DNA from: a virus
Lineage: Duplodnaviria > Heunggongvirae > Uroviricota > Caudoviricetes
Length of the DNA stretch: 64,000 nt
Virus record (IMG/VR): IMGVR_UViG_3300006226_001702
Span: 11,064 to 75,063 of that record
Direction: 5' to 3' (one strand)
Numbering within the stretch: position 1 is the first letter of the stretch; each line of letters starts with the position of its first letter. The translations under genes and the position numbers were made by a program. This document shows, in pieces, positions 1 through 48,292 of this stretch. The notes under the pieces were generated by a model that was not told the origin of the DNA, did not search any database, and was given only the letters and a program-made list of their open reading frames with translations.

Positions 1-398
1 TTTTTAATACCTTTTAATTTTTTACTTAAATGTTGTCTTTGTTCTTCTGTTCTTACTTTTCCAATATTCCATTTTCCTTTTATTTTATTAAAATCAGAAT
101 TAGAATTAACATAGTCCCAACCACCATTTCCACCTGTTGTCATGTTCAATCCATTATTTATTGTATCAAATTCTTTTATATAAAACATTTCCCAATAATC
201 TAATTCATTAGTTTCTTTTATTATTTCAAAAGAAAAATTATCAATACCATACTTTCTCATAGAATAATATAAATGACTATTTAATGTTAGATATAATTTC
301 TTATGTTCATACCATCTTTTATAAATGTTAGTTGACTTCCCAATGTACATTTTACCGTTTATTAAGTTTGTAATTTTATATATACCATTTATTTTCAT
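1..398 (-). CDS. GIY-YIG homing endonuclease (partial; 3' end runs off window start)
   Basis: Minus-strand frame open to position 1; N-terminus MKINGIYKITNLINGKMYIGKSTNIYKRWYEHK matches the GIY..YIG..R..E pattern of I-TevI-like nucleases; alternative in-frame ATG at 419; ATG at 398 lies in the conserved AACTAAATAATATG context. Confidence 0.65.
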   Translation of the reverse strand, partial: MKINGIYKITNLINGKMYIGKSTNIYKRWYEHKKLYLTLNSHLYYSMRKYGIDNFSFEIIKETNELDYWEMFYIKEFDTINNGLNMTTGGNGGWDYVNSNSDFNKIKGKWNIGKVRTEEQRQHLSKKLKGIK

Positions 399-472
399 AT
401 TATTTAGTTTTAATTCCATTTTAAGATATGTTTGTCCCAATTTAAGAATTGACGATTTAAACTCATTATATT

Positions 473-1483
473 ATGGTTAAAATAGAAAATGCAACTTTAT
501 ATAATGATGATTGCTTCAACGTTTTTAAGAAAATTCCAGATGAATCAGTAGATTTAATAGTAACAGACCCGCCTTACGGTATATCAGCAGGTAACACTTA
601 TCATAACCCAAATGAAGCTAAATGGGATAAGTTCAAAGATAGTGAGTTCATTGAGTTCACAACTAAATGGTTGTTAGAAGCTTATAGAGTTCTAAAACCA
701 ACAGGCTCATGTTGGTTCTTTTTTGGGCCCACTAAAATCCACGAGATATTTGAAGCTGTTCATTCTACTGAGTTCATCAATAATCTTGACAACTGGGCTA
801 TTTATGCTCGTGAATCAGGACGAGGCACAACTAAAAAATTGAAGTCACTTCGAGAGGATATCTTTCATTTAACTAAGAGCAAAACTTATCAATGGAATAG
901 TGTCGAATATCTTCGTAAAGTGATTGCTCCATACAAAATGAAAGGTGGGATTAAAAGAGGATGGGATTATGGCCCAGATGGAAAGACGCCATTGAGGTTC
1001 ACATCACTTGGTAACATAATGGCTTTTAGTAGCGAATGTCAATTTGATGAAAAATCTCAAAAGAAGGGAACAGTGTGTGATATAGCTTCTGGATTGCCAC
1101 TCAAGTTTGACGGCTATCCATCTGATGTAACTTTTTTCGTCAATCCATCATATAACAACAAATTTGACAAGGCAATTCATTCTTGTCAAAAACCAATTCT
1201 ATTGTTATCAATGCTAATTATGATTTCAAGTAGGGAAGGGGAAACTGTCTTGGACCCATTTTTTGGTTCTGGAAGTTGTGCAGTCGCTGCAAAAATTTGT
1301 GATAGAAAGTTCATCGGCTTTGAGCGTGAACTCGGCACATTCACATCCGCTGTCAAATTTATTAAAGATTTTCCGTATGAGACGGCAGAAAAGTATATTC
1401 AGAATCATGCGTCATCCTCTGAGAAAGGTTTTCGTTTTGGGCAGGATAAACGATTAGTGTGCAAAAAAGATTGTACCACTTAA
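473..1483 (+). CDS. DNA methyltransferase, beta-class amino-MTase (N6-adenine or N4-cytosine)
   Basis: Motif IV DPPY (LIVTDPPYG) precedes motif I FxGxG (LDPFFGSGS), the permuted order typical of beta-class N6A/N4C methylases. Confidence 0.8.
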   Translation: MVKIENATLYNDDCFNVFKKIPDESVDLIVTDPPYGISAGNTYHNPNEAKWDKFKDSEFIEFTTKWLLEAYRVLKPTGSCWFFFGPTKIHEIFEAVHSTEFINNLDNWAIYARESGRGTTKKLKSLREDIFHLTKSKTYQWNSVEYLRKVIAPYKMKGGIKRGWDYGPDGKTPLRFTSLGNIMAFSSECQFDEKSQKKGTVCDIASGLPLKFDGYPSDVTFFVNPSYNNKFDKAIHSCQKPILLLSMLIMISSREGETVLDPFFGSGSCAVAAKICDRKFIGFERELGTFTSAVKFIKDFPYETAEKYIQNHASSSEKGFRFGQDKRLVCKKDCTT

Positions 1484-1788
1484 AGCCAGTCCTCATCATC
1501 ACCAACTAAATCGTCTAATTTGATTTTTTCATTAACAGTTTCATAACCCAAGTCTTCTTCCTCTTGAGTGTTGTCAACTATGTCTTCATCATCGTCATAT
1601 AAGTCATAACTGTCATCAAACAACTCGCTATCCTCTTCAACATATTTCATGTCTTCAATGAGGGCTGATAGATTATCATTCATTATGCGGAATGCTTTTG
1701 CCTTATCAAATGAGTCTTCTACCATATCCTTGGCTATTTTTTGAATGTGTAATAGTCGATTATAGACTGTATCAATATCTCTTGTCAT
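1480..1788 (-). CDS. hypothetical acidic protein
   Basis: 102-aa ORF, ATGA overlap with methylase stop region, strongly acidic C-terminus (DDSYDLYDDDEDIVD). Confidence 0.45.
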   Translation of the reverse strand: MTRDIDTVYNRLLHIQKIAKDMVEDSFDKAKAFRIMNDNLSALIEDMKYVEEDSELFDDSYDLYDDDEDIVDNTQEEEDLGYETVNEKIKLDDLVGDDEDWL

Positions 1789-1814
1789 AGGTTTACAGAA
1801 TATAACAAAAAGTG

Positions 1815-5954: not shown

Positions 5955-7331
5955 TTAGGCTGATTGCCCAATACAACCAGTCACCTTCCTTTTGCCGTAA
6001 TGTTTCACGGCCTCTATAATGTCTTGTTTTGATAAGCTATATTTTTTGAGTATCTTAAATGCTTTATTTAAAAGCCACACTACATCTTTGCGTTTCATTT
6101 CATATTCTTCAGATAGTTCGTCTACATCTTTATAGTTTTCTTTTATCCACCAATTTAGCATATTAGCTGGGTTCGGCTTGTTTGCTGGAATCCAAAATTC
6201 CTCATCTTCAAAAGCTGATGAAAGATGTGTTAAGAAGTCAGTCTCTTTTGGAGGTTCCGCAATGGCTTCGATTTCTCTTTCAGTTTCAGCCGCTGGGCTA
6301 CTACTCATCGCATTTAGATATGATGCAACTTTACTGTTGCCCAAATGTTGAATAGCAGTCATCAACTCTTGACCAGATATGTTATAGTCAGCAAGTTTCT
6401 TTTGAGCTGTATCCATTAAAGTTGCAGCTGAATTTCTTGAAATGCCAAACTTGGCACCCATAGCTCTAAACTCAGCTTTTGGATTTTCTATTATCTCGTG
6501 AAAGATATCTGCTGCTGTAACTCCTTTTGTGTCCTTTCTAAGTGCAGGATCTTGTACATAATTTTTCCATTTTTTTAGAAACTCTGTAGCATATAGATTA
6601 TCATCTACTTCCTTAAACGAATTTTCATAAGCTGCTTCGAATGTGTCATCTTTATAACCACGAGATGTGTGTGACATTGACTCATCATCCCATTCATTAT
6701 CATCAACATCACTATCATACCAAGTTGGTTCATACTGATGTACTTTAACTGATGCACTACCACCGGAAAGTTCCTTACCAGTAATGCCACCTGTGTCCTT
6801 TGACAAATTAGAATTCACAGCTGCATTCTTCAAAAGCATCTTATATTTATTAGCAAAAACTCCCATGATACTTTCTTCGGAGTTTTTACTGACATCAAAT
6901 CCACCAGTTCTTTCTCCGTCTTTATTAGTTGTACCAAAAAGAGCACTTGTTCCTTCTTTACTATTGAACTCATCGAAACCACCAGTGAGAACCATCCATG
7001 CTATTCCAAGCCATTGTTCCCATGCACTTTCATGTTGAATACGATAACGTCGCATTTCTCCTGATGGACCAAGATAATTTTTCCAGAATGCTTGCTGAAT
7101 AACAGGCTCCATTTTGTAGAAAAGATATTCTAAAGCACCCTTATCTTTCTTTTTTGCTGCTTCAAAAACCTCTTTATTACTCTTTCCAGCCCATTTATTT
7201 ATAGAAGAAGGCAAGACTATTTTAGCTACACTAAAATCTTTGGCAGTTTTATATCCTTCTAGTAGTTTTTGATGTCTAACTCGTTCTTTTATTTGAGTAA
7301 GCATCTGAAAATTAAGTTCGTCTAAGTTCAT
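5955..7331 (-). CDS. hypothetical protein, possible sigma-70-family-like regulator
   Basis: 458 aa; C-terminal LSEEYEMKRKDVVWLLNKAFKILKK resembles a sigma region 4.2 HTH; weak region-2-like segment; first gene of a minus block with the AACTAAATAATATG start context. Confidence 0.3.
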   Translation of the reverse strand: MNLDELNFQMLTQIKERVRHQKLLEGYKTAKDFSVAKIVLPSSINKWAGKSNKEVFEAAKKKDKGALEYLFYKMEPVIQQAFWKNYLGPSGEMRRYRIQHESAWEQWLGIAWMVLTGGFDEFNSKEGTSALFGTTNKDGERTGGFDVSKNSEESIMGVFANKYKMLLKNAAVNSNLSKDTGGITGKELSGGSASVKVHQYEPTWYDSDVDDNEWDDESMSHTSRGYKDDTFEAAYENSFKEVDDNLYATEFLKKWKNYVQDPALRKDTKGVTAADIFHEIIENPKAEFRAMGAKFGISRNSAATLMDTAQKKLADYNISGQELMTAIQHLGNSKVASYLNAMSSSPAAETEREIEAIAEPPKETDFLTHLSSAFEDEEFWIPANKPNPANMLNWWIKENYKDVDELSEEYEMKRKDVVWLLNKAFKILKKYSLSKQDIIEAVKHYGKRKVTGCIGQSA

Positions 7332-7372
7332 ATTATTTAGTTAAATTGATAACTAACTATTAAGGAATAATA

Positions 7373-7909
7373 ATGAATTCACATTTTGATAACTTAAAAG
7401 AGAATAACACACTAGCTCCTGTTGATGGTGAGCAATTACAAGAATATTACAACCCAAAACATTTAACTAAACGAGATAGCGGACTATTAGCAACGATTTC
7501 TAAAAGTTCAATAACAGCAATTGAATCAACTATTGGTTCATTATCTCACTTACTTCAGAACTTAAAAATCTACAAAGAATGTATGATTGATTCAATTAAC
7601 TTACAAGCTGAAAGTGCTGATATTGCAACAAAATATGGCAATGAAATTCCACAACAAGTTAACTCACTTCCTGGCGTTATTTCAATTCCAGCATCTTATG
7701 ACTTGGGTTCAATTCGCACAGATAATGACAGAATGATGGCAATTAAAGACCAAAAAGATAAGGTGGCTAACCAGAAAGAAATCTATTTAAGAATCTCAAA
7801 TGAAGATGTTAGGTTATTCTTGTCTGCATGGAAAAGACTCAATTTGACTAATGCTGCGTTTGACGAGTTCATTGAAGGATTAAACAAGCAAATTAACCCT
7901 TCATACTAA
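7373..7909 (+). CDS. hypothetical protein
   Basis: 178-aa ORF, first gene of a plus-strand block, AGGA RBS. Confidence 0.5.
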   Translation: MNSHFDNLKENNTLAPVDGEQLQEYYNPKHLTKRDSGLLATISKSSITAIESTIGSLSHLLQNLKIYKECMIDSINLQAESADIATKYGNEIPQQVNSLPGVISIPASYDLGSIRTDNDRMMAIKDQKDKVANQKEIYLRISNEDVRLFLSAWKRLNLTNAAFDEFIEGLNKQINPSY

Positions 7910-7923
7910 GGACTAATTAAAAT

Positions 7924-10152: not shown

Positions 10153-10175
10153 GTTTTTCTCATACTAAATATTAA

Positions 10176-15230: not shown

Positions 15231-15674
15231 CTAAAGGACTTTTCTCATTATAACACAGTCATTTACAGGTAATTCTTGATAGCCAAAACGTTGATAGTAG
15301 CTGATTAGTGAGGGATTTCTCGTTTGTAAAGTTATTGATGATAATTGAAGTGATCTAGCAATTCGTTCTAAGTCCTGCATAATAGTTGACCCAACATTTT
15401 TTCCACGAAACTCTGGGAAAACTTCAATGCATGAAAGATGTAGAGAATTTGGTAACCAATAATTGTTAGAAAGACAGATAATAGCAGTGGGGATTCCTCC
15501 AGTGTAAATGCTATCAGTTACTTCTGATAAACATTCAAACCATGAGAATTTAGTGTTGTCATAATATCCATTTCCTTTGACTCTATTTGGTCCAAGGTAC
15601 TCAAATATTAGCGGGAGTTCCTTCTCCCAATACTTCAGTTCGATGTCCGTCGCTGGAATCTTCACGTACTTCAT
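15231..15674 (-). CDS. GNAT family N-acetyltransferase
   Basis: Motif A-like VFPEFRGKNVGSTIMQDLERIA (acetyl-CoA binding R/QxxGxG/A). Confidence 0.65.
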   Translation of the reverse strand: MKYVKIPATDIELKYWEKELPLIFEYLGPNRVKGNGYYDNTKFSWFECLSEVTDSIYTGGIPTAIICLSNNYWLPNSLHLSCIEVFPEFRGKNVGSTIMQDLERIARSLQLSSITLQTRNPSLISYYQRFGYQELPVNDCVIMRKVL

Positions 15675-16086
15675 TTTCTTCCTTCAATTTGTTAATAACT
15701 TCTAATAAAATCTCTGGGTGCACTTTTTCATAAAAAGTTTGTTGCTTTAAAAAGTCACAAGCTTCTTCATATGTAAAAGTGTAAGGTTGATTATTTAGAA
15801 ATTCATACAGTTTCTCAAACGGCATGTAATTGTACTTACATAACTCAGAGGCTGCTTTAATCCTCAATTTACAATTTTCATTTTTAGTTAACTCAAATAT
15901 GCTCTGTTCTCTCTCAATAAATTTGTAAGCCATATCTGAAATTAACATAGTTTCGGATAATCTTGGTCCCCCATATTGCTCACACATTTTGATGATATCT
16001 TTTAATGCTTTGCCATATTCTTCAAAGTTATTACGATGAGAATTCAAAAGTGAGGCTTCTCTAAGTTTTAAGTCTTTTAATGTCAT
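15601..16086 (-). CDS. hypothetical protein
   Basis: 161-aa ORF; first gene of minus block with AACTAAATAATATG start context; 3' end overlaps the GNAT ORF by 74 nt. Confidence 0.45.
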   Translation of the reverse strand: MTLKDLKLREASLLNSHRNNFEEYGKALKDIIKMCEQYGGPRLSETMLISDMAYKFIEREQSIFELTKNENCKLRIKAASELCKYNYMPFEKLYEFLNNQPYTFTYEEACDFLKQQTFYEKVHPEILLEVINKLKEENEVREDSSDGHRTEVLGEGTPANI

Positions 16087-16111
16087 ATTATTTAGTTTTC
16101 TACTAACTATT

Positions 16112-16675
16112 ATGAATCTAAATAGAATCCGACATTCTACAGTTCAATCACGATTAGCAATGGTGCAAGACAGAGCTAGAAGAAAGTTAATCGATAACTC
16201 ACTCTTTTGGATAAGCAACCCAACTGACTGCATTAGAATGAGAATGAGAGAGAACTTTGAGGGAGATGCTATTTCCTGGATAGTTGAAAAGGCAGATGTC
16301 ATTTCAGCAGTTTTTCCACCTCTCACTGATGTTCCTTATAGAAAAGTCAATGTTGACCCAGTTACTAGAGCATGGAGTTTGACCTCATTAGTATCTGCTT
16401 TTGAAGATGATGCTCAAGAGAAATTCTATACGTTACAGATTCCATTTGAGTTTGATATAAATGCTAAAGATTTGTTGTTCAGAATTATGTTAGATGAAGC
16501 TCAAAAGTTTCCAATTATTATACCAATAATGTGTCAAGAATTATTAGGAACTTTTGGCGGTATGATGATAATAATGAATAAAGTAAAATGCACTATACCT
16601 ACAGATACTATACCACAGGAAATAGTTGACACTATTCATCAAATGGCGTTGCGTAGACAGATTATTAGATATTAG
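16112..16675 (+). CDS. hypothetical protein
   Basis: 187-aa ORF, start in ACTAACTATTATG context. Confidence 0.5.
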   Translation: MNLNRIRHSTVQSRLAMVQDRARRKLIDNSLFWISNPTDCIRMRMRENFEGDAISWIVEKADVISAVFPPLTDVPYRKVNVDPVTRAWSLTSLVSAFEDDAQEKFYTLQIPFEFDINAKDLLFRIMLDEAQKFPIIIPIMCQELLGTFGGMMIIMNKVKCTIPTDTIPQEIVDTIHQMALRRQIIRY

Positions 16676-22492: not shown

Positions 22493-22713
22493 AACGCAAT
22501 GCCTCCTTATATGTTTGAGTCCAGTTACGCAACTCATAATATTTAGTTAAAAAATGGGACTCCAGGTCTATATTCCGCCTCCTGAAGTTATCCCCGGACT
22601 GTTTTCCGCATCCGTTTTTAAATTCCTTACTAATTGAGCTCCCCCAAACTTTCAGGATAATTTTAGATTAACTTAAAAAAGAATTGGCATATTCTCATGA
22701 CAGATTGCTTGGA

Positions 22714-23400: not shown

Positions 23401-23428
23401 AAATAATTAGTTATTACTTCATAACTAT

Positions 23429-26502: not shown

Positions 26503-26544
26503 CTTTATTCCTTATTGTTGTTATATTAACTTCTACTAATTATT

Positions 26545-26787
26545 ATGAATAACATATATAAGGGGATTCCCGCAGTAAATCTAAATTCAGATGGCACTAT
26601 TGATGTTGGCTATGAAATCTACGCAAGAAGAATGAAAGAAGCCTATAATGAACATGTCATTGATAATATGAACATATACGACCATAACTATCATCAATAT
26701 TATAAGCATCACGAAAAACCTGGAGTTACAAGCTCTCCTGGTGCTATTCCAACTACTAGAAGTTCAACTGAGGTTGATGGTGACTAG
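26545..26787 (+). CDS. hypothetical protein
   Basis: 80-aa ORF with ACTAATTATTATG start context. Confidence 0.4.
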   Translation: MNNIYKGIPAVNLNSDGTIDVGYEIYARRMKEAYNEHVIDNMNIYDHNYHQYYKHHEKPGVTSSPGAIPTTRSSTEVDGD

Positions 26788-28117: not shown

Positions 28118-29487
28118 TATTTGTTAGCCTTATAGTCATCACATCTACATGGGTCATGTCCACAATCTTCACAATCTTTTCCAGTTGGCTTTTTAGCTTT
28201 TTTCTCTTTTTTGCCAGCTTTGTAATATTCTTCATATTCCTTACATCTACAAGGACTGTGTCCACAATTATCACATTCTTTACTTTCAGTAAGAGGTGCA
28301 GTTGCTACTTGATTGGCTGCCTGATTTGCAACTTTCGCTGCTTTTTTAGCTTCCTTAGCAGCTTCTTTTGCATTTTTTTCTGCAATTAAAGCAAATAATT
28401 TATCGCATGCTTCTTGCCTAGCAACTGGGTCTTTAATTAAACAGAATTGATGAGCTATTCCTTCGTAATCAATATTCTTACGAGGACCGCCTTCTCTTAA
28501 ACTATCATTATATATCTCATTAAAGTTTATGCTTTCATTATATTTTTGCTCATTATCAAAATTAGCTGCATATGTACATTTAATATTTGCACCTGGTCTA
28601 CCACCAATGTATCTTAAAGCTTTTTGTATTTTGTCTTTATTATCTGGGTCTTTTATGTTGCCTGCAAATTCTGGGCCTCTTGTGCTTCCATCAACAAAAA
28701 CTTGGAAAGTGTTTGCTCGCTTAACAGATGCCTTTTTCGGTATAATGTCTTCTTTTAATTGATTTTGATTTATGATTTTTTCTAAGAGTTTATCTTGTTT
28801 TTCAGTAAGTTTACCAACAATTTTTGCGCTGTCTTCACCCTCGCCTGTTGCCTTTGCAAGAAGTCCCAATGCTTTTGAAACTGATGCATCATCAACTGGA
28901 CTAAATGGTGCTGTTAAGTCTCTACCACCAGCCTTTGCTTTGAAAATTCCAAATTCATGAAGTTGTCTCTCACCTAATGGAGTTAAACCTTCTTCAGCAG
29001 CAGCTGCATCCATTTCTGACCAGTCTTCTTCGTCATCATCGTAATATTCAAATTCGGCTTCGTCATCTTCATCATCCCATTCAAAATCACCATCATGACC
29101 ACCAGTTGCAAAATACTCTTCTTCGTCTTCATCAGTTGGGTAATCTCCACCCATTTCATCGAAGTCATCATCGTCATCAAATGGGCCAATTCCTACACCA
29201 TTCTGTCTATCATCGTAAATTTCTGGATATAAGTCAGCATCAGATTCTTCATCATCTTCGTCATCACCATAACCACGATAAGACTGCTCACTCTCATAAG
29301 CTGCTCTTTGGTCTGGGTTCATCCATCCTATATCGCTTGCGTCATAAGACATTTCATCATCATCTTCAAATAATTCAGGTGCATCAAATTCTTTTGCTGC
29401 GGAAGGAACGTCATAAGTTTCTAACTCATCTTCGAAGGTCATATCGTCAAGGGCAGGATCCCAATCTTCTTTTAAAGGTTTCATCAT
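28117..29487 (-). CDS. highly acidic protein with two C-terminal CxxCGHxPCRC repeats
   Basis: N-terminal 170 aa very rich in D/E/Y; C-terminus CDNCGHSPCRC ... CEDCGHDPCRC. Confidence 0.5.
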   Translation of the reverse strand: MMKPLKEDWDPALDDMTFEDELETYDVPSAAKEFDAPELFEDDDEMSYDASDIGWMNPDQRAAYESEQSYRGYGDDEDDEESDADLYPEIYDDRQNGVGIGPFDDDDDFDEMGGDYPTDEDEEEYFATGGHDGDFEWDDEDDEAEFEYYDDDEEDWSEMDAAAAEEGLTPLGERQLHEFGIFKAKAGGRDLTAPFSPVDDASVSKALGLLAKATGEGEDSAKIVGKLTEKQDKLLEKIINQNQLKEDIIPKKASVKRANTFQVFVDGSTRGPEFAGNIKDPDNKDKIQKALRYIGGRPGANIKCTYAANFDNEQKYNESINFNEIYNDSLREGGPRKNIDYEGIAHQFCLIKDPVARQEACDKLFALIAEKNAKEAAKEAKKAAKVANQAANQVATAPLTESKECDNCGHSPCRCKEYEEYYKAGKKEKKAKKPTGKDCEDCGHDPCRCDDYKANK

Positions 29488-29496
29488 ATTATTTAG

Positions 29497-30393
29497 TTAT
29501 GATTGTTGTTTTTCTTTCTTTAATATGTCAAGCTGCTCTTTTGTCATTATTTTGTTAGATCTAGCAAATCTAACACCCGCTTTATATGTAGTTGGGCAAT
29601 AATCAGGATGTCCGGCAAATGAGCACCAATTACAATGATATGCCATACTTGCATTTTGTTCTAAATCTAAATTGTCCCAGTCCTCATTTTCGGATGCTTT
29701 AATTAATGAAGTGTATTCACTAATCATATCTTTAACTTGATCTTCAGTAAAAATTAGCTGCTTAAAAGTTTTGAGCATAAACTTTCTAGTTGATTCAATA
29801 TCATCAACATCTTCATCTTTTAATCCAGCCATTGGAAAAAATGCATAAGTTTTAATTTTATCATATTTAGTTTTGAGCTTATTTTTAATCATATAAGCAT
29901 ACAACATTAATTGATTTTCATAACCATTTATTTTAGCAGTACTACCAGTTTTAAAGTCGATAATTACAGCTTCTTTTGTGACTTCATTAATCAATAATAA
30001 GTCCATTGCCCCAACTACTGATTTCTTATTTATTGCACTATATTCCCAAGACTCTTTAGTTACAGTAAAACCTTGCTCTTCGTATGGTTTAATTATTTCA
30101 TTCCAAAACAAATAAAACCTGGGAATTGCTTTAATGACTGGATATTTTTCTTGATCAAAATCATATCCTTCTAATATTGTTGCTGCATGATTTTTTAAGT
30201 CTTCTAAAGTTTTAGTTGAATCCATAAATTCAGCAATTTGGTGGAATGCTAAACCTTTTTCTTGAACATCAATATCTTTGCCAATTACTACCAATTGCCA
30301 AATGTAAGTTAACAGATACTTTGTTCTACAACTGTTGTAAGCTCCAAACCTAGATGCACTCCACCTGGGATTCTGTTTTTCAGATTTTAACAT
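29497..30393 (-). CDS. Cas4/RecB-like PD-(D/E)xK exonuclease with Fe-S cysteine cluster
   Basis: IIDFK (D/ExK), QLMLY (QxxxY), and one N-terminal Cys plus CNWCSFAGHPDYC. Confidence 0.65.
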   Translation of the reverse strand: MLKSEKQNPRWSASRFGAYNSCRTKYLLTYIWQLVVIGKDIDVQEKGLAFHQIAEFMDSTKTLEDLKNHAATILEGYDFDQEKYPVIKAIPRFYLFWNEIIKPYEEQGFTVTKESWEYSAINKKSVVGAMDLLLINEVTKEAVIIDFKTGSTAKINGYENQLMLYAYMIKNKLKTKYDKIKTYAFFPMAGLKDEDVDDIESTRKFMLKTFKQLIFTEDQVKDMISEYTSLIKASENEDWDNLDLEQNASMAYHCNWCSFAGHPDYCPTTYKAGVRFARSNKIMTKEQLDILKKEKQQS

Positions 30394-35174: not shown

Positions 35175-35786
35175 CTATGAAAGAAAAGCGGGTGGTCGAG
35201 CTAACTTTTCTAATAAGTTATTGTCTCGATCAAATTTTAAGTGTATGTATTTTCTGCTTGCTAAATAGTCTGCTAAATGTAACATTTGTTCATCGAATTC
35301 TTGTGGTGTGGGAGTATTACCTGATTTGTCTCTTGCTGCGTCCCATCTTCCCATGTGGCTTGCGCATAATCTTGCTTCTTCAGATAGACCAACTTCATCT
35401 AATTTGTCGGCTATATCTTTGGCATGATGTTTTGATGTATATTCACTTTCATCAGTTGCATATTTGTAAGCATCATGAGCAATTGCTGCAATTACGAGTG
35501 AGTCTTGATTTAGTTGTGGGAATGCATCACATATCGTCATTACGAATTTGACTACAGCTTTAGTGTGTCGTGATAGACCAAAATCTCCTTGTGAGTATTC
35601 TGGGTGGTATTTTCCAGTAGAAGAAGCTTGACCTGCAATATTTTTATATGCAGCTGTTCTCAAAACGTTCTCTAATTTTGCTCTTTTTTCTTTTGATTGA
35701 ATTAAGTCTAATTCTTTCATGTAAATTTTAACATTTGGTGACTCAAGCATGAGTGCTTCTTCATAGATTCTCTGGAACGTTTTCAT
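35175..35786 (-). CDS. HD-domain phosphohydrolase (paralog A)
   Basis: SSTGKYHPEY...LSRHTKAV...AAIAHDAYKY (H, HD, D metal ligands); N-terminal MKTFQRIY. Confidence 0.65.
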   Translation of the reverse strand: MKTFQRIYEEALMLESPNVKIYMKELDLIQSKEKRAKLENVLRTAAYKNIAGQASSTGKYHPEYSQGDFGLSRHTKAVVKFVMTICDAFPQLNQDSLVIAAIAHDAYKYATDESEYTSKHHAKDIADKLDEVGLSEEARLCASHMGRWDAARDKSGNTPTPQEFDEQMLHLADYLASRKYIHLKFDRDNNLLEKLARPPAFLS

Positions 35787-35813
35787 ATTAGTTAGTAGAC
35801 TTAACTAAATAAT

Positions 35814-38800
35814 ATGAACTTTTTAAATGAGCTCGTTTCACTATCTAGAGATGAAATGGTCGATGAATATAATAAGACTAATAGAGATCCCATAGAAAAT
35901 GTTAAATTTGATAAAAGGGCAGCAAGTAGTTTTTCAGCCTCAAGAAAAGCTACTAGACATAAAATAACGGATAAACTCTTTCCAGATGGTTTTAATGAGT
36001 TTGATTTGCATAGTGCAGGAATTGCTATTCAAAGATTGATGAACACTGGGGAATTTGACCCAGATTACGATATAAAAGATGATATTGAAAAACTAACTGG
36101 CGCAGATAGAGACTTAATTAAAGCAGTTTTAGTCAAATCACAATATCATATTGATAAAGAAAACGTTAAGGGAAGTGTTGAACGAAATTATCCACATCTT
36201 GACATATCACAATTTGATGATATTTACGAAGTCTTTACTGATATAATTGGCCCAAACCATGGTGATACATCTTTATATGGAATTGAAGCCGAAATTGAAT
36301 TGTTGACTTGCATTGCTTTAAGAAAGATGGGATATCATACATCAAATGTTTATGACAACTTTTATTCAGAAGCTAGTGAGGCTCAAATTAAGGAGACTTT
36401 AATTAAAGTGGCTAAAGCATATTATCAAAGCAAACAGCATAAATTAGAAGAAAGTTTCAAACTTAGAATTCAGAACTTGAGGGAAGGTAAAACTTCCACA
36501 ATGCATTTAGAAGATTCAATAATTCGTGGTCCAGCGACTATGAATAAAATGATTGAATTTTTTAATTATCTCTATGGATTATTAGAAGGAACTTATACTG
36601 GAGATAATCCACCAATTTCACAAAAGATTGATGGTGGTCCAGTTATCTTTATGTGGTCGTCATTCCCAGGTCTTCCAGGCCCAGGATGTGCGGGCAAAGG
36701 ACTCCTTAATAAGACTCCAGTTCATTACACAACTCATGAACAAATAGATGCTGATGACAAACCACAAGGTTATAAAGACAAATTACATTACGTTTTGAAA
36801 TTAGCACAAGCTGTTAAAATCCCAGCAAATCAAGTTTGGATGGGCGACATGCTCTTCTCAAAAGGTGACGCCAAAACTTATGAGCAAGACGGTGAGAAAT
36901 TCGTTTATGTTAAGCCTGTAACTATTGCGTATGCAGCTCCATTTGATTCAGATATTGGTAAGAAGTTTTTGAATTGTGAAGTTGGAGCTGTTTTTCATAC
37001 GAGATTTAGAGATAACTTAACTAACAAGACTAATGATATTTCAATTTCAGAATTGGGAGATATTCCAGATTGGGCATTCGTTAAAGATGCTCAAATAAAT
37101 AACTTAAGTGGTAAGGTATCATTCAATAAGCAAGAATCCGCTTTCGTAAAACGTGAGATTGATAAACTTAAAAAGCTTGTAAACGAGCTAAACAATAATG
37201 AAGCATATCATGAGTTAACTAAAAATCAGAAGTTTATTGACTCATACGTTACAACATTACAGAATAATAAGATTGATAGACAAAGTAAAATTGACCCAAA
37301 TGAATTCGTAAATGAATTAGTGAGTTGGATTGGCACTAAAATGGATAATAATAGATCCAAATTGGATAGCCTCAAAACAGAAGCAGGCCGAATTAAAAAG
37401 GCAGCCTCATTAGATACGACTCAAAAAGAGTTAAATTATCTCGTAACTAACAATAAAGATGTAATTCAAAAAATAGCAACTTGTCTCAAACTTGCAACTG
37501 ACATTAAAGAGTACATGGTTGAAAAGATAAACGAAGCAGATGAATGGATATCTCAAATAGAAACTAAAGACGGTTTTTCTAAAACTGGTGGGGAAGGTTT
37601 TATCGCATCAGATGTTGATGGTGATTTCGTTAAGCTTGTAGACAGAGCAGCATTCACTTATTTTGCTCGCTCACCTGACATCATCAAAGGCGGGGCACAT
37701 TCAGCTTCTCGTGAAAACACTGAGAAGAAAACTGCGGTAGTAAACTTTGGCAGACTTAATCCTGTTTCAATTGGCCACAGAAAAATGGCAGAAGCAATTA
37801 GAGCTAAAGCAGATGAACTTGGTGGTGAAGCATTCATCTATCTTTCTCATTCATATGATGGTGTTGACTCTAAGAAGTTCAAGAAAGGAACAACTAAGAA
37901 TCCGCTCAAGTATGAAGACAAGATAACTTTCGTACAGGATGCTATTGGTGATATTGTAACAGTTGTAAATAGCAAAGCAGACCAAGCATTTGCTGTTTAT
38001 GGTGAACTCTATCGAAAAGGATTTACTGACCTCGTTATAATTGCTGGTGAAGATAGAATTGAAGTCTTTGAAAGAGATGCTCAGAACCACAATGGAAAGT
38101 ATGATGCTGAACCAATGAGATGTTTTGATTTTGATAGCATTAAAGCGGTGAATGCTGGTGTTAGAGATGAAGATAGTGATGATGAAGCTGAGCAGGCAAG
38201 TGCATCATTGTTACGTAGAGCTGTTAGTGATAATGATTTTGAAACTTTTGAGAAGTTTGTTGGTGCAAAGTCATATGCTCAAGAAATGTTTGATCTTCTT
38301 AAGTATGAGATGGGTTTATCTGAAAAATTAAAAGAAAATGAAGAACTAACAATAGATGAACTCATAAATAGATTAGACAATGAAGATAATAATATTGAAA
38401 TAGAAATCGATGTGAATCCTGATCCAAATGAAGAAACAAATTTTAATATAATAGAAGAACCTGAAAATAAAAATGAAGTAAATGATTCTACTGAAAATAG
38501 AGAAAGTTCTCCAGAGGAAATTAGTAGTGAAATAAATTCAGCAATTGATTCCTATATGAATGAATCAATAAATATTTTTAATAAAATATTTTATAAAAGT
38601 TTAAAAGAAGAGACAAAAAGAGGAAAAACTTATACAGTAAAAGGTAAAGAAAATATAAAGAAAGTTTTATTTAATATAAAGAAAAGACACAAAGATTTAA
38701 CTTTTTATAATGCAAAGCATCTTGGTGGCGGTAAGTGGGAAATAAAAACATCATATGCTAAGAGTAGATCAAACTTAAGTAATCGTGAGATTGAATGGAA

Positions 38801-41808: not shown

Positions 41809-41941
41809 TTAGAGCATTAAACACATCAGAATTAGCATCAATATCAGTGAGTCGTTGCATTAACTTCAATGCATCCATAACATTCTTTGAAGCACCATTT
41901 ATGCTTGTAATAATATCGCCAATGATTATATCGTCATCCAT
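41753..41941 (-). CDS. small hypothetical protein
   Basis: 62-aa ORF with ACTAATTATTATG start context. Confidence 0.35.
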   Translation of the reverse strand: MDDDIIIGDIITSINGASKNVMDALKLMQRLTDIDANSDVFNALIGVQREISDIKDYFKSRE

Positions 41942-41966
41942 AATAATTAGTAACTCACTAAATAAT

Positions 41967-42578
41967 ATGGATAAATCTACTTATATACTACGACAATCAC
42001 TTGGCTGGTTGGGAGCAGCACTTCCCTTCATGTGTCTCATCTTTGGGGCACTTGGAATGTACAATGAACCAACATGGTTTCACACTATGTCACAAACATT
42101 TTACACTCCAGCAATAACTCCATTCGTTGGTGTTCTTTGGGCAGTTGGAATCTTCCTCATTGCTTATGGAGCAGCAAATCTTTATGACTATTGGGGTGAC
42201 AGAGTAGTCAACATTGCCTCTGGTATCTTTGCTATTGGCGTTGCTGTTTTCCCATGTCAAACGGCTCTATTCACACACGTTGGAATGTTCATGTTACCAG
42301 TTGGCACATCAGCAATCCTTCACTATATATCAGCAGGCGGGCTATTCATTATGCTTGCCATCAACATTCTTTGGCTCTTTAGAAAAGGCAAATCAGAAGT
42401 TCATAATAGAATCTATCTAATATGTGGGCTCGGCATTGTGTTCGGGTTCCTCCTCATTGGCGCAACTGTTCTATTTGGCTTGTGGGGCTTTTTGGGTTGG
42501 ATTGCTGAAGCAATTATGTTGCTATGTTTCTCCTTCGCTTGGTTGGTGAAAGGAAAAGCATTCAAGTTAATATCATAG
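41967..42578 (+). CDS. polytopic membrane protein
   Basis: Track ORF trimmed to MDKSTYIL (CACTAAATAATATG context); about 6 hydrophobic helices. Confidence 0.5.
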   Translation: MDKSTYILRQSLGWLGAALPFMCLIFGALGMYNEPTWFHTMSQTFYTPAITPFVGVLWAVGIFLIAYGAANLYDYWGDRVVNIASGIFAIGVAVFPCQTALFTHVGMFMLPVGTSAILHYISAGGLFIMLAINILWLFRKGKSEVHNRIYLICGLGIVFGFLLIGATVLFGLWGFLGWIAEAIMLLCFSFAWLVKGKAFKLIS

Positions 42579-42972: not shown

Positions 42973-42987
42973 AACTTACTAATTATT

Positions 42988-45975
42988 ATGTCTGATGGAA
43001 TTAGCCAAATAGTTGGCAGTGTTAGCGACGGAGCCCAACAAGTAACTGGTGGGCTTAATGCTGTTAATGCTACACTTGGCGCAATCAATGAGAAAATAGA
43101 AGGTCTCCATGAAACTAAAACTGAACAACTACAGGTCGAGGTAACAGCTCTTCCTGATTTTGTTCGTGACATTTATGACAAAGTTGCGCAAATAACTGAT
43201 GGCTTAACTGATAGTAAAGATATCCTTTCAGACATTCGTGACACTGGAGATGAACCATTAGAAGTTGGTGAAGGCCCAATTTACATTGGCGAGACTTTAG
43301 ATAGATTATTAGGTGACCAATCAATACTTGTCACTTCAATCAATGATATCCTTCAAAACTTAACTGGTGAACAAGCTGTAGCAGGAAATGCAACTGGGCC
43401 ATCGTTGGACTTTCAAGATGAGGGTTGGCAATCATTAGCTCAAACTATAGTTGCATTCGTTGATACGGCATCAGCAGCAGGCGCATCTGACATTCAGGCA
43501 GGGCTAACTGCCATTCAAAATGTGTCGCAATTCATTGATGAAGCTCAAGCTATTTTTGCTGATTTTACTGTTCCGGGTTCAGTGTTAGAACTTTCCACAT
43601 TCATTGGCCAAATTGAACCATTACTAAGTTCCATTCAAGAAGTAGCTGATTTTGCTGCAACTATTCCTGACTTTGAAGTTCCATCATTTGACAATGTGTC
43701 TCTGTTGTTTCAATCACTACAGACGATTACGACAGAAGCAAGCAATATATCAGCCATCTCAAGTGAGGCAATAGAAGGTTTGGGTTCAATTGACACATTC
43801 GTTGAAGCTGTACAACTTATTGCTAATGAACTACAAGATGTGGCTATTCCAGACATTGATGTTAGTGGACTATTTAGCGGGATAAATGAAGCAGCTGAAC
43901 TTGCTGCCAATATGAACTCACTTATATCAGATGCAAACAACACAGTAACTCAACTTGGCGGTTTTGTAACTGCCGTTAACGAAATAAGCGAACAATTTAT
44001 AGACTACTCAGATGCTGGTGCTGCCTCTACAATGATGGCTTCATTCATAACTGACTTGTCAACAGCTATAACAAGCATATCGGCAACTGGAGAATTAGCT
44101 GCATCATCAGTAGACAATCTTGCGGCTATCGCTGACTTTGTTGGTGGTATGAACCAACTATTTGGCACTTTAGCAATAGTTGAAGTTAGTGATGCTGTTG
44201 CAGTGTCTGATGAGATTCGTTCATTCTTCACTGACATCGCCGGCACATTTGAGTCGCTCAATGCTATTCAAGATCTAGTCACGGACGCAAGTGGAACTTT
44301 ACAGAACATTTCATCTTTCATTGTTGGAGTAGCCGAACTAACTGGTGCTGCCGATACATTGGAATTAGACGACTTTACTGAGTCAATGGTTGGCATTGCT
44401 AACTCATTGACATCATTAAGTACAACTCTATCAGCTCTTCAAGAAATCGATGAAACTCAAATAGAAGAAGCCGGCTCAATTCTCACTGAGGTTGCAGGAC
44501 TATTCACAACAGTTAGCGGACTATCATTAGCAGCAGAAGAAGCTCTATCATCAGTGCCTGCTTTAACAGATGCAGCTAGCCAAATAGCTGCTGTTTCAAC
44601 ATCACTCACTACGATGTTAAGTGCTGTTGATATGCTAAATGAAAGTGAGATAGATAGTGGCTCATTAGAACAGATAGCAAGCTTAATCACAACTTTCCAA
44701 TCACTGTCAATGGTAGCAGCAGAAAGCTTAAGTACCATGTCAGATTTAGACGACTTTGCAACAACAGCTACTGCCACATTAGCTCCGCTTCTTGGAGTTG
44801 TTGACTTACTAAATGACACTACAGACATACCAGCCAATCGCATTGGCGAACTTCAACAAATCATAGCATCGCTTGGCGAGCTTGGAGAAGTTGCAACACT
44901 ATCAGCAGCTCCATTAGATGACTTGAGTTCATTCTCAGAGCAAGCACAAGCAGCATTGGGCCCGCTACTTAATGTACTTCCAATAGTTAACGAACTATCA
45001 GACATAGTTCAAGAAGTGGACTTGAGCCAATTGAACAGGATAGGCGACATTTTTGGCAGGCTTTCAGCATTGGGAGAAGATACGACTCTAACTGGCAACA
45101 TCGAGAATTTAGCCGACATCACCTCATCAGTCAACACATCAATGGCCTCAGTAGCAGAAGCATTCAGTGCGGTGCAAGAACTTTCAATGTTCAGCGAGCA
45201 AGTCAACATGGGCGGTATCGCTGGAATGTTTGAGCAGTTGGGTGAGCTTGGAGATGTTGCATCCGAAAGCATGAACAGCATTGGCGATGTGAATGCAGTA
45301 GCAACTGAAATAGCTCAGGCTTTCCAATCAATGGGCGCAATCACTGACTCACTAGAAGTAGTTGGTGAACTCACTGAGCAGTCAGGCGTCATAATTGATG
45401 GCTTCAAAATGATGGATGATATGATGGATGTGCTTGGCAATCTTGCCGGAAAGAGTGAGATGCTTGGCGGAGTTGCTGGCTCATTGTCAAACATTGAACA
45501 GTTTACTGCATTGGGTGATTTGTTTGGCCAACTCGCATTGAACCAAGATGCATTAGCAGATAGCAAATCACTCACACAGGATATGATGGGCGCCATTCAG
45601 AACTTGATAGTCGTTGGCGAATTTGCTGATGAATTGGGCGACTTCAAATTGAACCTTGAAGAGAACTTAATCACACCGTTGTCTGGATTAGCAGAAGGGG
45701 CTGAGAACCTTCGCAACATTGCAAGTAGTGTGCGCGAGATCAATTCAGAATTGACTAAATTATCAAGTGATAATGCAGATACGTTAAAGTCACTGAACGT
45801 TGAAGATAGTGATAGCGTGTTTGGTTCACGAGGTGATAGTTTTGGAATGGAGCCTCAACAGCAGCAGAATGAGCAGCAAGGGAATGACCCACAGTTGGCA
45901 GCTATATTGCAGGAGTTGAGTGCGATTAAAGAAGTTTTAAGTAAGGAAGAAAGTTCCTCATGGTTGGAGAATTAA
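42988..45975 (+). CDS. tape-measure-like or internal virion protein (Ala/Ser/Leu/Thr-rich, 995 aa)
   Basis: Low-complexity helical composition with recurring LGELGEVA-like segments and a Gln-rich C-terminus; call rests on size and composition. Confidence 0.35.
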   Translation: MSDGISQIVGSVSDGAQQVTGGLNAVNATLGAINEKIEGLHETKTEQLQVEVTALPDFVRDIYDKVAQITDGLTDSKDILSDIRDTGDEPLEVGEGPIYIGETLDRLLGDQSILVTSINDILQNLTGEQAVAGNATGPSLDFQDEGWQSLAQTIVAFVDTASAAGASDIQAGLTAIQNVSQFIDEAQAIFADFTVPGSVLELSTFIGQIEPLLSSIQEVADFAATIPDFEVPSFDNVSLLFQSLQTITTEASNISAISSEAIEGLGSIDTFVEAVQLIANELQDVAIPDIDVSGLFSGINEAAELAANMNSLISDANNTVTQLGGFVTAVNEISEQFIDYSDAGAASTMMASFITDLSTAITSISATGELAASSVDNLAAIADFVGGMNQLFGTLAIVEVSDAVAVSDEIRSFFTDIAGTFESLNAIQDLVTDASGTLQNISSFIVGVAELTGAADTLELDDFTESMVGIANSLTSLSTTLSALQEIDETQIEEAGSILTEVAGLFTTVSGLSLAAEEALSSVPALTDAASQIAAVSTSLTTMLSAVDMLNESEIDSGSLEQIASLITTFQSLSMVAAESLSTMSDLDDFATTATATLAPLLGVVDLLNDTTDIPANRIGELQQIIASLGELGEVATLSAAPLDDLSSFSEQAQAALGPLLNVLPIVNELSDIVQEVDLSQLNRIGDIFGRLSALGEDTTLTGNIENLADITSSVNTSMASVAEAFSAVQELSMFSEQVNMGGIAGMFEQLGELGDVASESMNSIGDVNAVATEIAQAFQSMGAITDSLEVVGELTEQSGVIIDGFKMMDDMMDVLGNLAGKSEMLGGVAGSLSNIEQFTALGDLFGQLALNQDALADSKSLTQDMMGAIQNLIVVGEFADELGDFKLNLEENLITPLSGLAEGAENLRNIASSVREINSELTKLSSDNADTLKSLNVEDSDSVFGSRGDSFGMEPQQQQNEQQGNDPQLAAILQELSAIKEVLSKEESSSWLEN

Positions 45976-45976
45976 A

Positions 45977-47281
45977 ATGAGTTATGGTAGTACTAGAGTA
46001 GCAATAAATAGTGAAGGATTTGCAAATGCAGGAAAAATAACTGATGCTGTTTATACTTCAGATTCAGATGCAACTAGAATACTCCCAAGTGATAGTGGAG
46101 TGGCTATGACTAACCCAGTTTGGGAAACTTATGGCCAAAGTAAATATACAGATGAAAGAAATCATGCATATCAATATATAAATAAATATAAGGTAGTTGA
46201 AATAGCATTAGTAAATGCAAGTAGAAAATTTCCTCCTGATCTTACAAGTAATGAATGGGGGAATTGGAGAGAAACTAATGCTGGAGCAACACAACCAATA
46301 AAAGTTGATAAAAGTGTTTTATTATTAAAACAAGGACAAGGAGAAGGGGGAGACCAGAAGTTTAAATTTCGTTATACGAATGAATATGGAGATAAAATTT
46401 TTGATACTTTTTCAGGTGGATTTGCTCAAAATTTAAAAGGTGGGTTTGAATTACTTAGAAATATCGCTGATAAGTTTAAAGATAAAAAAGTTGATGCAGC
46501 TTCTGAGGCTGGAGAAGATGATGGTTCTTCAATGTCGACCGGCGGGAAATTTATGTCATTATATCATAAAACACCATCATGGGAAGGAATAACTCCATTA
46601 AGTTTTGAAGATACAATGGCTTTTGATTTTAATTTTGGACAGGCTGGTATTTTTTCTGCTGAACACGAGGTGGTTAGACCAATTTTAGCATTAGCTTTAA
46701 TATTTCTCCCATATTCTCCAGAAGGAGATAATTATTTTCTTGGCCCATTACCCACTGCACCTCATTTTTATTCAAATTATCTTTTAACTTTTGGACAACA
46801 AGAAGACACAACGGAAAAAAGAGAAGATTTTGGTAGAAGTTTTCTTCAAGAAACAAAACGAGCTGAAGCTTTTATGCTAGCAAAACAGGTTACAGCTGTA
46901 GAAAAGTCATTAGAAGGCCCTCTTCATAAAGGTAATACTAAAAGTTCAGATGGTTTTTCAACAGCTATATGTTTCAAAATTGGAAGAATGACTATCGGTC
47001 CTTTTATTGCTTCTACCATAGATTGGACTTTTGATTATAAACAAGTTGATGAGTTTGGTTTTCCATATAAAGGTTCTATTACATTTGGTGGTCTTAAATC
47101 AAATATAATTCCAACAGAAAAATTTGTTGGGTCATTTTTTCAAGGTCTAGATTTCACAGATAAATTAAATGACCCAGGTAATTCTGAAGTAGGTAGAGAC
47201 CCATCTTTATCTCCAGATGAAATATTAATGAATATGAATAATAATAGTGGTCATGATGCTAGATTAATGTCAATGTCTTAA
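45977..47281 (+). CDS. hypothetical protein (possible distal tail/baseplate protein)
   Basis: 434 aa, ATGA-coupled to the preceding large ORF. Confidence 0.4.
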   Translation: MSYGSTRVAINSEGFANAGKITDAVYTSDSDATRILPSDSGVAMTNPVWETYGQSKYTDERNHAYQYINKYKVVEIALVNASRKFPPDLTSNEWGNWRETNAGATQPIKVDKSVLLLKQGQGEGGDQKFKFRYTNEYGDKIFDTFSGGFAQNLKGGFELLRNIADKFKDKKVDAASEAGEDDGSSMSTGGKFMSLYHKTPSWEGITPLSFEDTMAFDFNFGQAGIFSAEHEVVRPILALALIFLPYSPEGDNYFLGPLPTAPHFYSNYLLTFGQQEDTTEKREDFGRSFLQETKRAEAFMLAKQVTAVEKSLEGPLHKGNTKSSDGFSTAICFKIGRMTIGPFIASTIDWTFDYKQVDEFGFPYKGSITFGGLKSNIIPTEKFVGSFFQGLDFTDKLNDPGNSEVGRDPSLSPDEILMNMNNNSGHDARLMSMS

Positions 47282-47507
47282 CGCTCAAATAAAGGTTCCA
47301 AATCATTAATGTAAGTCATCGTAATAACATCATGATTCTTTCCCCTTAACAGGACAATATTCTTATTAAAGATATCTTCAACAATCAAAGGAATTCCTCT
47401 CTTGAGGTGGCAAGGACAAATCAATAGCGGGCTATATCGTAAATAGGATCTAAAGAGATAGTAACTTGGTTTTGATAAATTTGCTATTCGAACTACAGTC
47501 CCAGGAA

Positions 47508-47699
47508 TTAGTAGTGCCTTCGTCTTCTTCGCTCACTATGCTGGTCAGTCATAAAATCATCAACAACTCGACGAACAGTTTCAAAATCTTCTATTCCTTC
47601 AAGTTGGTCAACAACTTCTTGCCAACCCTCATATAGTTTGTACATGTCAGTTTCAGAATGCTTATATTCGGACTGTAGATAGTTATATGCTATTTCCAT
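47508..47699 (-). CDS. small hypothetical protein
   Basis: 63-aa ORF with ACTAATTATTATG start context. Confidence 0.35.
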   Translation of the reverse strand: MEIAYNYLQSEYKHSETDMYKLYEGWQEVVDQLEGIEDFETVRRVVDDFMTDQHSERRRRRHY

Positions 47700-47704
47700 A
47701 ATAA

Positions 47705-48292
47705 TTAGTCCACAATTATTTGGTTCAAATCATCGAACTTAATTGTGATTACCTTTTTAGCACAAAGATAATCAGCATATGCAACAATATAGTGCTCGGG
47801 TTTAGTGGGTGGCTTGCCTAACTCTTTTCCATTCTTATCAGTGTGCCAACGACTCATGTGCGTGTCAACTATATCGGCTATCAATGGCCAATAAATAGAA
47901 TCAGCAAACTTGCTTCTAATAGCATCACCCATCATAATAGCATGTTCATTGTGAATGTACTTCTGATCTTTTTCAGTGTACTTTTTCATATCGTGAAGAA
48001 GAGCACCAATGTAAATGATGTCCCATTCTATGTCATTGTCATACTTTGGGTCTTGCTGTAACATTAGTTCAGTCAATTTACAAACGGCTCTCGTGTGTCT
48101 TAAAAGACCACCCACCCCGTTTGACCAAGGTGGGTGATATTTCCCGCTGCTACTTGCCGGCGCATCACAAATGTAATCAGAACATTCCATTAGAAGTGCT
48201 TTACAATCGATGCGTAGATATTCTGTTTTGATTTTTTCAATTTCAGTCTTAAAACAGTTTAGTATTCTTCTTCCCATAAGTCTGGATGGCAA
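47705..48292 (-). CDS. HD-domain phosphohydrolase (paralog B), candidate RNA 3'-end healing enzyme
   Basis: SSSGKYHPPWS...LLRHTRAV...ALLHDMKKY; paralogous to 35175..35786. Confidence 0.65.
   Translation of the reverse strand: MPSRLMGRRILNCFKTEIEKIKTEYLRIDCKALLMECSDYICDAPASSSGKYHPPWSNGVGGLLRHTRAVCKLTELMLQQDPKYDNDIEWDIIYIGALLHDMKKYTEKDQKYIHNEHAIMMGDAIRSKFADSIYWPLIADIVDTHMSRWHTDKNGKELGKPPTKPEHYIVAYADYLCAKKVITIKFDDLNQIIVD

Follow-up and report, generated by a model that had tools for sequence, protein, structure and literature searches.

The stretch of DNA analysed here, referred to below as the window, comprises 64,000 nucleotides (nt) of the viral record IMGVR_UViG_3300006226_001702 (Caudoviricetes; positions 11,064 to 75,063). 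It is gene-dense, has a G+C content of about 35%, and carries three tRNA genes together with genes for a family A DNA polymerase (in two open reading frames, ORFs), ThyX, a DNA ligase, RNA ligase domains, and an N6 methylase. An ORF of 742 amino acids (aa) encodes a T4 gp20-like portal protein with more than 500 homologues, all of them metagenomic and located on contigs of up to 375 kilobases (kb). One ENA sample yields two contigs, of 50.7 and 183 kb, each of which contains one half of the window, and near-identical relatives of 329 kb exist. The source is therefore a jumbo myovirus, probably of about 330 kb, and the samples, judging from their identifiers, are presumably from termite gut. 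Among isolated phages, no close relative was found by DNA search, the portal protein gave no match, and the DNA polymerase reached only about 25% identity. The subject of this study is a 13-base element, ACTAA-N-TA-N-T-ATG, that recurs at gene starts in this genome and that we consider to be a probable promoter of the phage family, fused in this clade to the start codon.

The window contains 13 copies of the general form, ACTAANTANTATG (Table 1). An initial annotation of this DNA had reported five copies of the word AACTAAATAATATG, four of ACTAATTATTATG, and related forms; all coordinates and strands of the exact words were correct, the related forms are present at 16102(+), 35784(-), and 41957(+), and one more was found at 22535(-). 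The same annotation held that five identical copies were not plausible by chance even in AT-rich DNA, and dinucleotide-preserving shuffles, with means of 0.00 and 0.02 for the two words, rule out chance and AT-richness as an explanation. The 10-mer ACTAANTANT, which is the element without its ATG, occurs 16 times as compared with 3.9 ± 1.9 times in shuffles, and motif enumeration, proposed earlier as a check, placed every window copy at a gene start (16/16) and none elsewhere. ATG follows directly in 13 of these 16 copies, one base later at 23411(-), and two bases later at 10164(+), while the copy at 7352(+) is followed by AAGGA, with ATG 12 nt on. When one mismatch was allowed, a scan with the 13-mer returned only a single extra window site, the one at 7352(+), which makes the motif nearly all-or-none. 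Across the window and its close relatives, an ORF of at least 61 codons is opened by the ATG in all 40 non-redundant instances, and the ATG of the element is thus a real start codon. The genes behind the element lack a Shine-Dalgarno (SD) sequence, as had been claimed, whereas internal genes possess strong SDs of the AGGAG type. It is hardly to be doubted that the element is real and functional.

The copies had also been described as heading, in each case, the first gene after a strand switch. Nine of the 13 canonical sites fit this description, but the other four (22535, 29485, 42978, and 47697) are co-directional with the upstream gene, and at 29485 the copy overlaps that gene's stop codon. 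Although TAA is present in up to three frames of the element, stop-restart coupling was rejected as a general function, since an upstream ORF is lacking at the divergent junctions where most copies are located. A repeat or mobile element was excluded by the unconserved flanks, and a known RNA family by the Rfam matches in the window, which are the three tRNAs only.

Back-to-back pairs at divergent junctions account for half of the copies; their spacer measures 5–10 nt and the distance from ATG to ATG 25–33 base pairs (bp), which leaves no room for a further promoter. The profile of 20 unpaired copies shows T at -12 in 16 and A at -11 in 14, and the information content from -13 to -32 is at most 0.4 bit at every position, although a profile anchored on ATG would miss promoters at variable distances. 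With nothing conserved between -13 and -32, there is neither a -35 box nor a TATA box. A promoter of the sigma-70/sigma-A type (TTGACA, 17 ± 1 bp, TATAAT, 5–8 nt to +1) was rejected because the -35 hexamer is absent, no register places both A-11 and T-7 on conserved bases with +1 at or before ATG, and sigma-70-like consensus sites were no more frequent than in shuffles. An archaeal TATA box with initiator was also considered, since the partner element lies near -26 in the pairs, but unpaired copies have no TATA there, and the gene content and SDs are bacterial. The exact paired element is restricted to this clade, with matches in four IMG/VR contigs. Among the 185,579 species genomes of GTDB, the paired pattern was matched only by four perfect palindromes of 33–34 nt on contigs of unrelated metagenome-assembled genomes (L009–L012; for example, CATATTATTTAGTTAGTCTAACTAAATAATATG), with no ORFs behind the ATGs. 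We take these as chance or unrelated hairpins, and a prophage in a sequenced genome was dismissed on the same evidence.

The wider family was represented by 54 related phage loci, of which 878 ORFs were used for upstream word counts. The same 13-mer is found at the starts of genes in relatives with 77%–82% portal identity; more distant relatives lack it but possess (A/G)ACTAA-N-T before many genes. When hexamers between -25 and -1 of the 878 ORFs were counted with no motif given, the most enriched were SD words (AGGAGA, 21-fold) together with ACTAAT, CTAATT, AACTAA, and GACTAA (12- to 13-fold). ACTAA lies 4–9 nt before ATG in 115 genes, and 111 of these have no SD, as compared with 270 genes without and 493 with an SD among the others (Fisher p = 2e-39); fused core and SD largely exclude each other. 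In a further 107 genes the core is found 10–25 nt upstream, and 91 of these possess an SD that starts 6–12 nt past ACTAA. The two placements combined account for a quarter of the family genes, and since the core is found either with an SD leader or with a fused ATG, it works independently of ATG.

The distance from ACTAA to ATG peaks sharply by clade, at 5 nt in the clade of the window, 6 nt in many others, and 7 nt in L033 and L040. The T two bases past ACTAA is nearly invariant (45/45 in the 6-nt class, 16/16 in the 7-nt class, and 33/36 in the 5-nt class). In 85% of the fused class the base directly before ATG is a T, as opposed to 31%–38% of SD genes. Transcription start sites prefer a pyrimidine at -1 and a purine at +1, and this bias fits that preference while having no obvious translational reason. 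Moreover, start codons of the fused class comprise 104 ATG, 4 TTG, and no GTG, whereas SD genes have 369 ATG versus 44 (p = 0.025); the near-absence of GTG and TTG is as expected of leaderless translation. The start of the portal gene bears the core in every clade examined (50%–82% portal identity), although the architecture of the leader varies, and the core also precedes baseplate and tail genes, a tail-like ORF of 995 aa, and genes of no assigned class. In several relatives (L027, L033, L036, and L047), a terminator hairpin with its T run ends 3–10 nt before ACTAA. The core is retained in phage loci of 28%–55% G+C, which presumably have different hosts, and this suggests that the specificity factor travels with the phage.

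Therefore, we propose that the element is a promoter of this phage family that lacks a -35 box and is welded to the AUG start in the clade of the window (probability of roughly 0.6). The core would be (A)ACTAA-N-T, fixed in this clade as T-A-A-C-T-A-A-n-T-A-w-T directly before ATG. Transcription would begin at the A of the start codon, with T at -1 and A at +1, and the resulting mRNA, with its 5' end at the AUG, would be leaderless. The first gene of each unit would then be translated without an SD, while downstream genes of the unit retain strong SDs. In other clades, either an ATG stands 6 or 7 nt past the same core or a short SD-bearing leader comes next. Such a promoter would stand before late or structural genes (portal, baseplate, and tail), among others. 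Its reader may be a sigma-like protein on the host core enzyme, comparable to T4 gp55, or an unrecognised phage polymerase. Action as a promoter at the DNA level is the part we regard as likely; a transcription start at AUG or within 2 nt of it in this clade, as the base preferences suggest, and a phage-encoded reader are each somewhat better than even, and the specific proposal of a sigma-like reader on the host core enzyme is tentative.

Several observations weigh against this proposal. The gap between core and ATG depends on the clade (5, 6, or 7 nt), so that either the distance from promoter to start shifts or some clades have leaders of 1–2 nt. Terminators adjoin the core only about two-fold more often than expected (18/222 vs. 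24/653), and ACTAANTANT is only weakly depleted away from gene starts, with 8 copies observed in 192 kb where about 12–17 were expected. If the conserved T of ACTAA-N-T is taken as the -7 position of a sigma-70 promoter, the discriminator measures 3–5 nt, which is short for a holoenzyme of that type, and with starts 25–27 bp apart two polymerases of the bacterial type could not occupy a pair simultaneously. In addition, no RNA polymerase, sigma factor, or homologue of gp55, gp33, or gp45 was found; the sequence searched comprised the window and its flanks, about 190 kb from the close clade, and 1.2 Mb surrounding portal genes of the family, with about one fifth of a genome of probably about 330 kb covered.

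The earlier annotation had offered a phage-specific promoter giving leaderless or very short-leader mRNAs and a dedicated translation-initiation signal as alternatives, and of the two the promoter is favoured. It is conceivable that the element acts in RNA, as an SD-independent enhancer of translation initiation or as the operator of a translational repressor resembling RegA of T4, with mRNAs that start farther upstream at unaligned promoters. The element abuts or includes the start codon of genes that have no SD, ACTAA is located 5–7 nt from AUG where an SD usually resides, and promoters at variable distances would be invisible in our profile. However, in 91 family genes the core stands 6–12 nt before a normal SD, too distant from AUG to replace it, and ACUAA is by inspection not complementary to the 3' end of 16S rRNA. 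Neither divergent pairs nor cores right after terminators leave space for another promoter upstream, and an action in RNA does not account for the T at -1. We thus judge action in RNA to be improbable.

A lower standing is given to RNA processing, in which leaderless or short-leader mRNAs would arise from polycistronic transcripts through cleavage at ACUAA-N-U by an endoribonuclease of the phage or the host. Cleavage would account for both the ATG-fused and the pre-SD configurations, as well as for co-directional sites such as the one over a stop codon at 29485, but an upstream sense transcript is not expected at the nine of 13 canonical copies located at divergent junctions. Some copies follow terminators directly, and there is no other promoter motif at the heads of those units, which makes cleavage quite unlikely as the function of the element. 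To a similar degree, we doubt that the element is the DNA site of a phage repressor or activator lying over gene starts, with a weak host-type signal nearby as the true promoter (for example, a CATAAT or TATTAT -10 sequence from the reverse complement of the paired element). Paired copies do form an inverted repeat like the operators of dimeric regulators, and by inspection their complements hold -10-like hexamers about 21–26 nt from the partner ATG. Against this, half of the copies are unpaired and have no -10-like consensus at -21 to -26, the family core is a single oriented 7-mer with no palindrome, and the fixed distance to ATG, the missing SD, and the T at -1 would all be unexplained. The least probable alternative is a host alternative sigma factor as reader: the early promoters described below resemble those of host sigma-A, which indicates use of the host polymerase, and the available sequence yielded no phage factor, but the core is conserved over 28%–55% G+C, the paired motif occurs in the species genomes only as chance palindromes, and we know of no Firmicute sigma consensus that the core matches.

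The initial annotation had compared the core with the late promoter of T4-like phages, and this resemblance is borne out in part. T4 late promoters (TATAAATA), which are used by gp55 and gp33 with the gp45 clamp on the host core enzyme, likewise consist of some 8 bp in the -10 region and have no conserved sequence at -35, and they likewise precede late structural genes of a myovirus, to which the phage studied here, with its T4-like portal and baseplate, corresponds. The sequence likeness is partial (ACTAAnTA here), as invariant AC replaces the TA of T4 and the sixth position, the third A of CTAAATA, is free (A, T, or C). T4 late mRNAs carry SD leaders. Searches with Pfam, PHROGs, and NCBIfam found no homologue of gp55, gp33, or gp45 in the window, its flanks, and relatives, and the replicative polymerase belongs to family A. 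The T4 8-mer occupies -13 to -6, 5 nt before +1 (PMC7892883). If this geometry is applied here, +1 falls after ATG, and the T4 geometry therefore fails. An analogy with a late promoter that has no -35 box is nevertheless reasonable.

The proposed leaderless starts have other parallels. In the leaderless promoters of Deinococcus, actinobacteria, and haloarchaea, an element is likewise followed at a short, constant distance by an AUG that is also +1, and the first cistron has no SD while internal cistrons do. Phage examples of such promoters are known from the Thermus phages phiYS40 and P23-45. The genes studied here share the features expected of leaderless starts, namely an absent SD combined with a fixed-distance element (111/115 genes) and a preference for AUG. 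They differ in that the known systems use the ordinary -10 box of the host (TANNNT) rather than a phage-family ACTAA-N-T, and in that the host here is SD-rich and Firmicute-like, a background in which leaderless mRNAs are uncommon.

Promoters of single-subunit polymerases of the T7 type have the consensus TAATACGACTCACTATAG. They are likewise compact and contiguous and end at +1, and they share A(-10)C(-9)T(-8), A(-6), and T(-4)A(-3) with the element. However, the T7 promoter extends over about 23 bp (-17 to +6) with strict spacing, whereas conservation here runs from -12 to +3, +1 is A, and the spacing varies between 5 and 7 nt by clade. The late promoter of the AR9 non-virion polymerase reads A(-11)ACA-N6-T(-1)-A/G(+1) (PMC7598289), and AR9 and phiKZ are likewise jumbo phages with very short promoters and no -35 box. 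If the A of ATG is taken as +1, the element has A(-11, about 70%; 14/20), A(-10), C(-9), and then T(-1) and A(+1) in the same register, and the TATG of phiKZ (T(-3)ATG(+1)) is invariant here too. On the other hand, position -8 is an invariant T here and A in AR9, and AR9 requires uracil-containing DNA and gp226, while ThyX suggests thymine DNA in this phage. The 5' untranslated regions of AR9 measure 26–491 nt (PMC5312081), unlike the leaderless mRNAs proposed here, and the +1 of phiKZ is G, which excludes AUG. No split beta/beta' genes were found in the sequence available, and the early promoters are sigma-A-like rather than of the virion-polymerase type. The AR9 and T7 likenesses serve as leads and not as evidence of membership, and the element is not assignable to either kind of system.

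Searches for a reader in the available sequence were negative. Pfam, PHROGs, and NCBIfam revealed no polymerase or sigma factor in 72 window ORFs, nor in 31 large and 80 medium ORFs of relatives, nor in the flanks of the window, and a solved-structure search with the three largest ORFs of unassigned function returned no matches. PF00940 (T7-like polymerase) had no match in the sequence available, and in the 1.2 Mb of sequence covered there was no NADFDGD-type or other polymerase signature and no split beta/beta' gene. The sole match to a catalytic motif, an A-S-D-V-D-G-D stretch in a protein of 1531 aa, was judged spurious because its context resembles ligase nucleotidyltransferase motifs, and the 742-aa ORF, once suspected as the reader, is the portal. 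The geometry of the element fits a sigma-type reader if ACTAA corresponds to about -11 to -7 with a discriminator of 5–7 nt.

Two further promoter-like classes were identified. The second class, on the minus strand, has the form ATTTTGAAC-N15-CTTATAT(A/T)AT (TTGAAC, 17 bp, TATATT), with five strong window copies followed by SD leaders; one of them heads the DNA ligase operon, and the class is conserved in the distant relatives L015–L017. These are probably early promoters read by the host polymerase, and the presence of this sigma-A-like class implies that the host polymerase is used at least early in infection. The third class, GTTAAT-N-T followed after 6–7 nt by ATG, comprises 20 family instances (L015–L062), of which 19 are SD-less. 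It precedes the DNA polymerase in the window as well as primase and methylase genes in L015, and its geometry is exactly that of a sigma-70 promoter, as TAATAT would occupy -12 to -7 if +1 is the A of ATG. By its sequence, this class may represent a second kind of leaderless start. Together, the three classes look like an early (sigma-A-like), middle (GTTAAT), and late (ACTAA) programme.

Table 1. Copies of the element, other promoter-like sites, and selected genes in the window and in related loci.
Feature	Position	Strand	Context
AACTAAATAATATG, identical copies	396-409, 7329-7342, 16084-16097, 29485-29498	-	
AACTAAATAATATG, identical copy	35803-35816	+	
ACTAATTATTATG, identical copies	26535, 42978	+	
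ACTAATTATTATG, identical copies	41939, 47697	-	
Canonical, ACTAAATAATATG	396..408	-	ATG 398-396 of GIY-YIG-like gene running off left window end; divergent from methylase gene 473(+)
Canonical	7329..7341	-	Heads 458-aa ORF 5955-7331; divergent junction
Variant ACTAACTATT, then AAGGAATAATAATG	7352..7361	+	Core with 12-nt SD leader, no fused ATG; heads operon 7373-7909 leading into portal gene
Core ACTAATT	7912..7918	+	7-nt gap, then ATG of T4 gp20-like portal gene 7924-10152
ACTAAATATT, then AAATG	10164..10173	+	ATG at +3; heads 687-aa ORF 10176-12239
Canonical	16084..16096	-	Heads ORF 15601-16086; back to back with 16102 copy, 5-nt spacer
Canonical, ACTAACTATTATG	16102..16114	+	Heads ORF 16112-16675
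Canonical, ACTAAATATTATG	22535..22547	-	Heads ORF 21812-22537 (Hsp20-like domain); co-directional; imperfect hairpin and T run before it, read by eye
ACTAATTATT, then TATG	23402..23411	-	ATG at +2; heads ORF 22714-23400
Canonical	26535..26547	+	Heads ORF 26545-26787; divergent junction
Canonical	29485..29497	-	Heads 456-aa ORF 28117-29487; co-directional; overlaps stop codon of ORF 29497-30393
Canonical, ACTAACTAATATG	35784..35796	-	Heads ORF 35175-35786; back to back with 35804 copy, 7-nt spacer
Canonical	35804..35816	+	Heads gene 35814-40409 for 1531-aa polyvalent protein
Canonical	41939..41951	-	Heads 62-codon ORF; back to back with 41957 copy, 5-nt spacer
Canonical	41957..41969	+	Heads 203-codon ORF 41967-42578
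Canonical	42978..42990	+	Heads 995-aa ORF 42988-45975 (weak tail-protein match); co-directional
Canonical	47697..47709	-	Heads 63-codon ORF 47508-47699; co-directional
Core ACTAAAT, then GAATAGGAGCCTAAAATG	48607..48613	-	Short SD leader; heads ORF 48259-48591
Core ACTAATT, then TAATAAGGAG...ATG	60448..60454	-	Short SD leader; heads ORF 59744-60427, tail/baseplate block
Second class, 5' ends of CTTATAT	56651, 35062, 15206, 14820, 3817	-	Weaker upstream halves at 54881, 50496
Third class	21816, 56909	-	
Third class	42566	+	
Third class with SD leader	26530, 26252, 31448, 2894	-	
Chemotaxis protein gene	3844-5925	-	
DNA polymerase, two ORFs	18841-19725, 19718-21802	-	8-nt overlap
408-aa ORF	53421-54647	-	
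tRNA-Gln	54994-55067		Adjoins 408-aa ORF
tRNA-Pro	55721-55794		Adjoins 408-aa ORF
Baseplate hub gene, C-terminal part	62883-63875	-	Last window ORF; continues beyond right window end (L074 3329-9985)
ORFs listed with chemotaxis protein	L017 5132-5980, 8278-9327		

Some of the surrounding genes merit description in their own right. At the right end of the window, the final ORF encodes the C-terminal part of a gp5-like baseplate hub/tail lysozyme of 2218 aa; a gene for a gp6-like wedge protein follows, and the genome continues on the 183-kb contig. The family A DNA polymerase is divided between two overlapping ORFs, and the same split was called on an independent ENA contig; it could be natural or could reflect a programmed frameshift. 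The 1531-aa protein carries LPD3 and ART-PolyVal (ADP-ribosyltransferase) Pfam hits, assigned by inference, besides a PHROGs nucleotidyltransferase match and the ligase-motif-like stretch. By analogy with T4 Alt, which modifies the host RNA polymerase, it is a candidate for an injected host-takeover protein. The 408-aa ORF has a strong match to an uncharacterised PHROG and a weak one to Fe-S oxidoreductases.

A full-length methyl-accepting chemotaxis protein with dCache, HAMP, and MCP signalling domains is also encoded in the window. Flagellin and GGDEF genes occur in relatives; histidine-kinase, response-regulator, and Cache domains are matched by large ORFs from relatives (alignment A2). Genes of host-like motility and signalling are therefore a recurrent feature of this phage family. 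In the relatives L001–L008 and L018–L019 (alignment A4), three ORFs match the TET-associated glycosyltransferase (PF20691) and a C5 cytosine methylase is found among the large ORFs, and on the strength of these matches such relatives may hypermodify cytosine.

The literature that was searched contains no description of the motif or of a similar system. What appears to be new is a promoter specificity that is family-wide in an uncultivated lineage of jumbo phages and that has become fused to the start codon in one clade. A bolder and rather doubtful extension is that ACTAA-N-T belongs to an unrecognised specificity system, be it a sigma-like factor of a new kind or a new phage RNA polymerase, of a large family of uncultivated jumbo myoviruses, one clade of which would express its late genes by obligately leaderless mRNAs. 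Obligate leaderless late expression of this kind could couple to a phage-induced shift of host translation toward leaderless initiation. With the motif as a simple guide, the gene starts and transcription units of these genomes can be annotated; it also provides a handle for finding its reader, and the compact module of promoter plus start codon is possibly useful for engineering. If the proposal is true, the element would be the main, and probably late, promoter of a widespread phage family so far seen only in metagenomes, and leaderless expression would be systematic here although the host otherwise depends on strong SDs, which is unusual.

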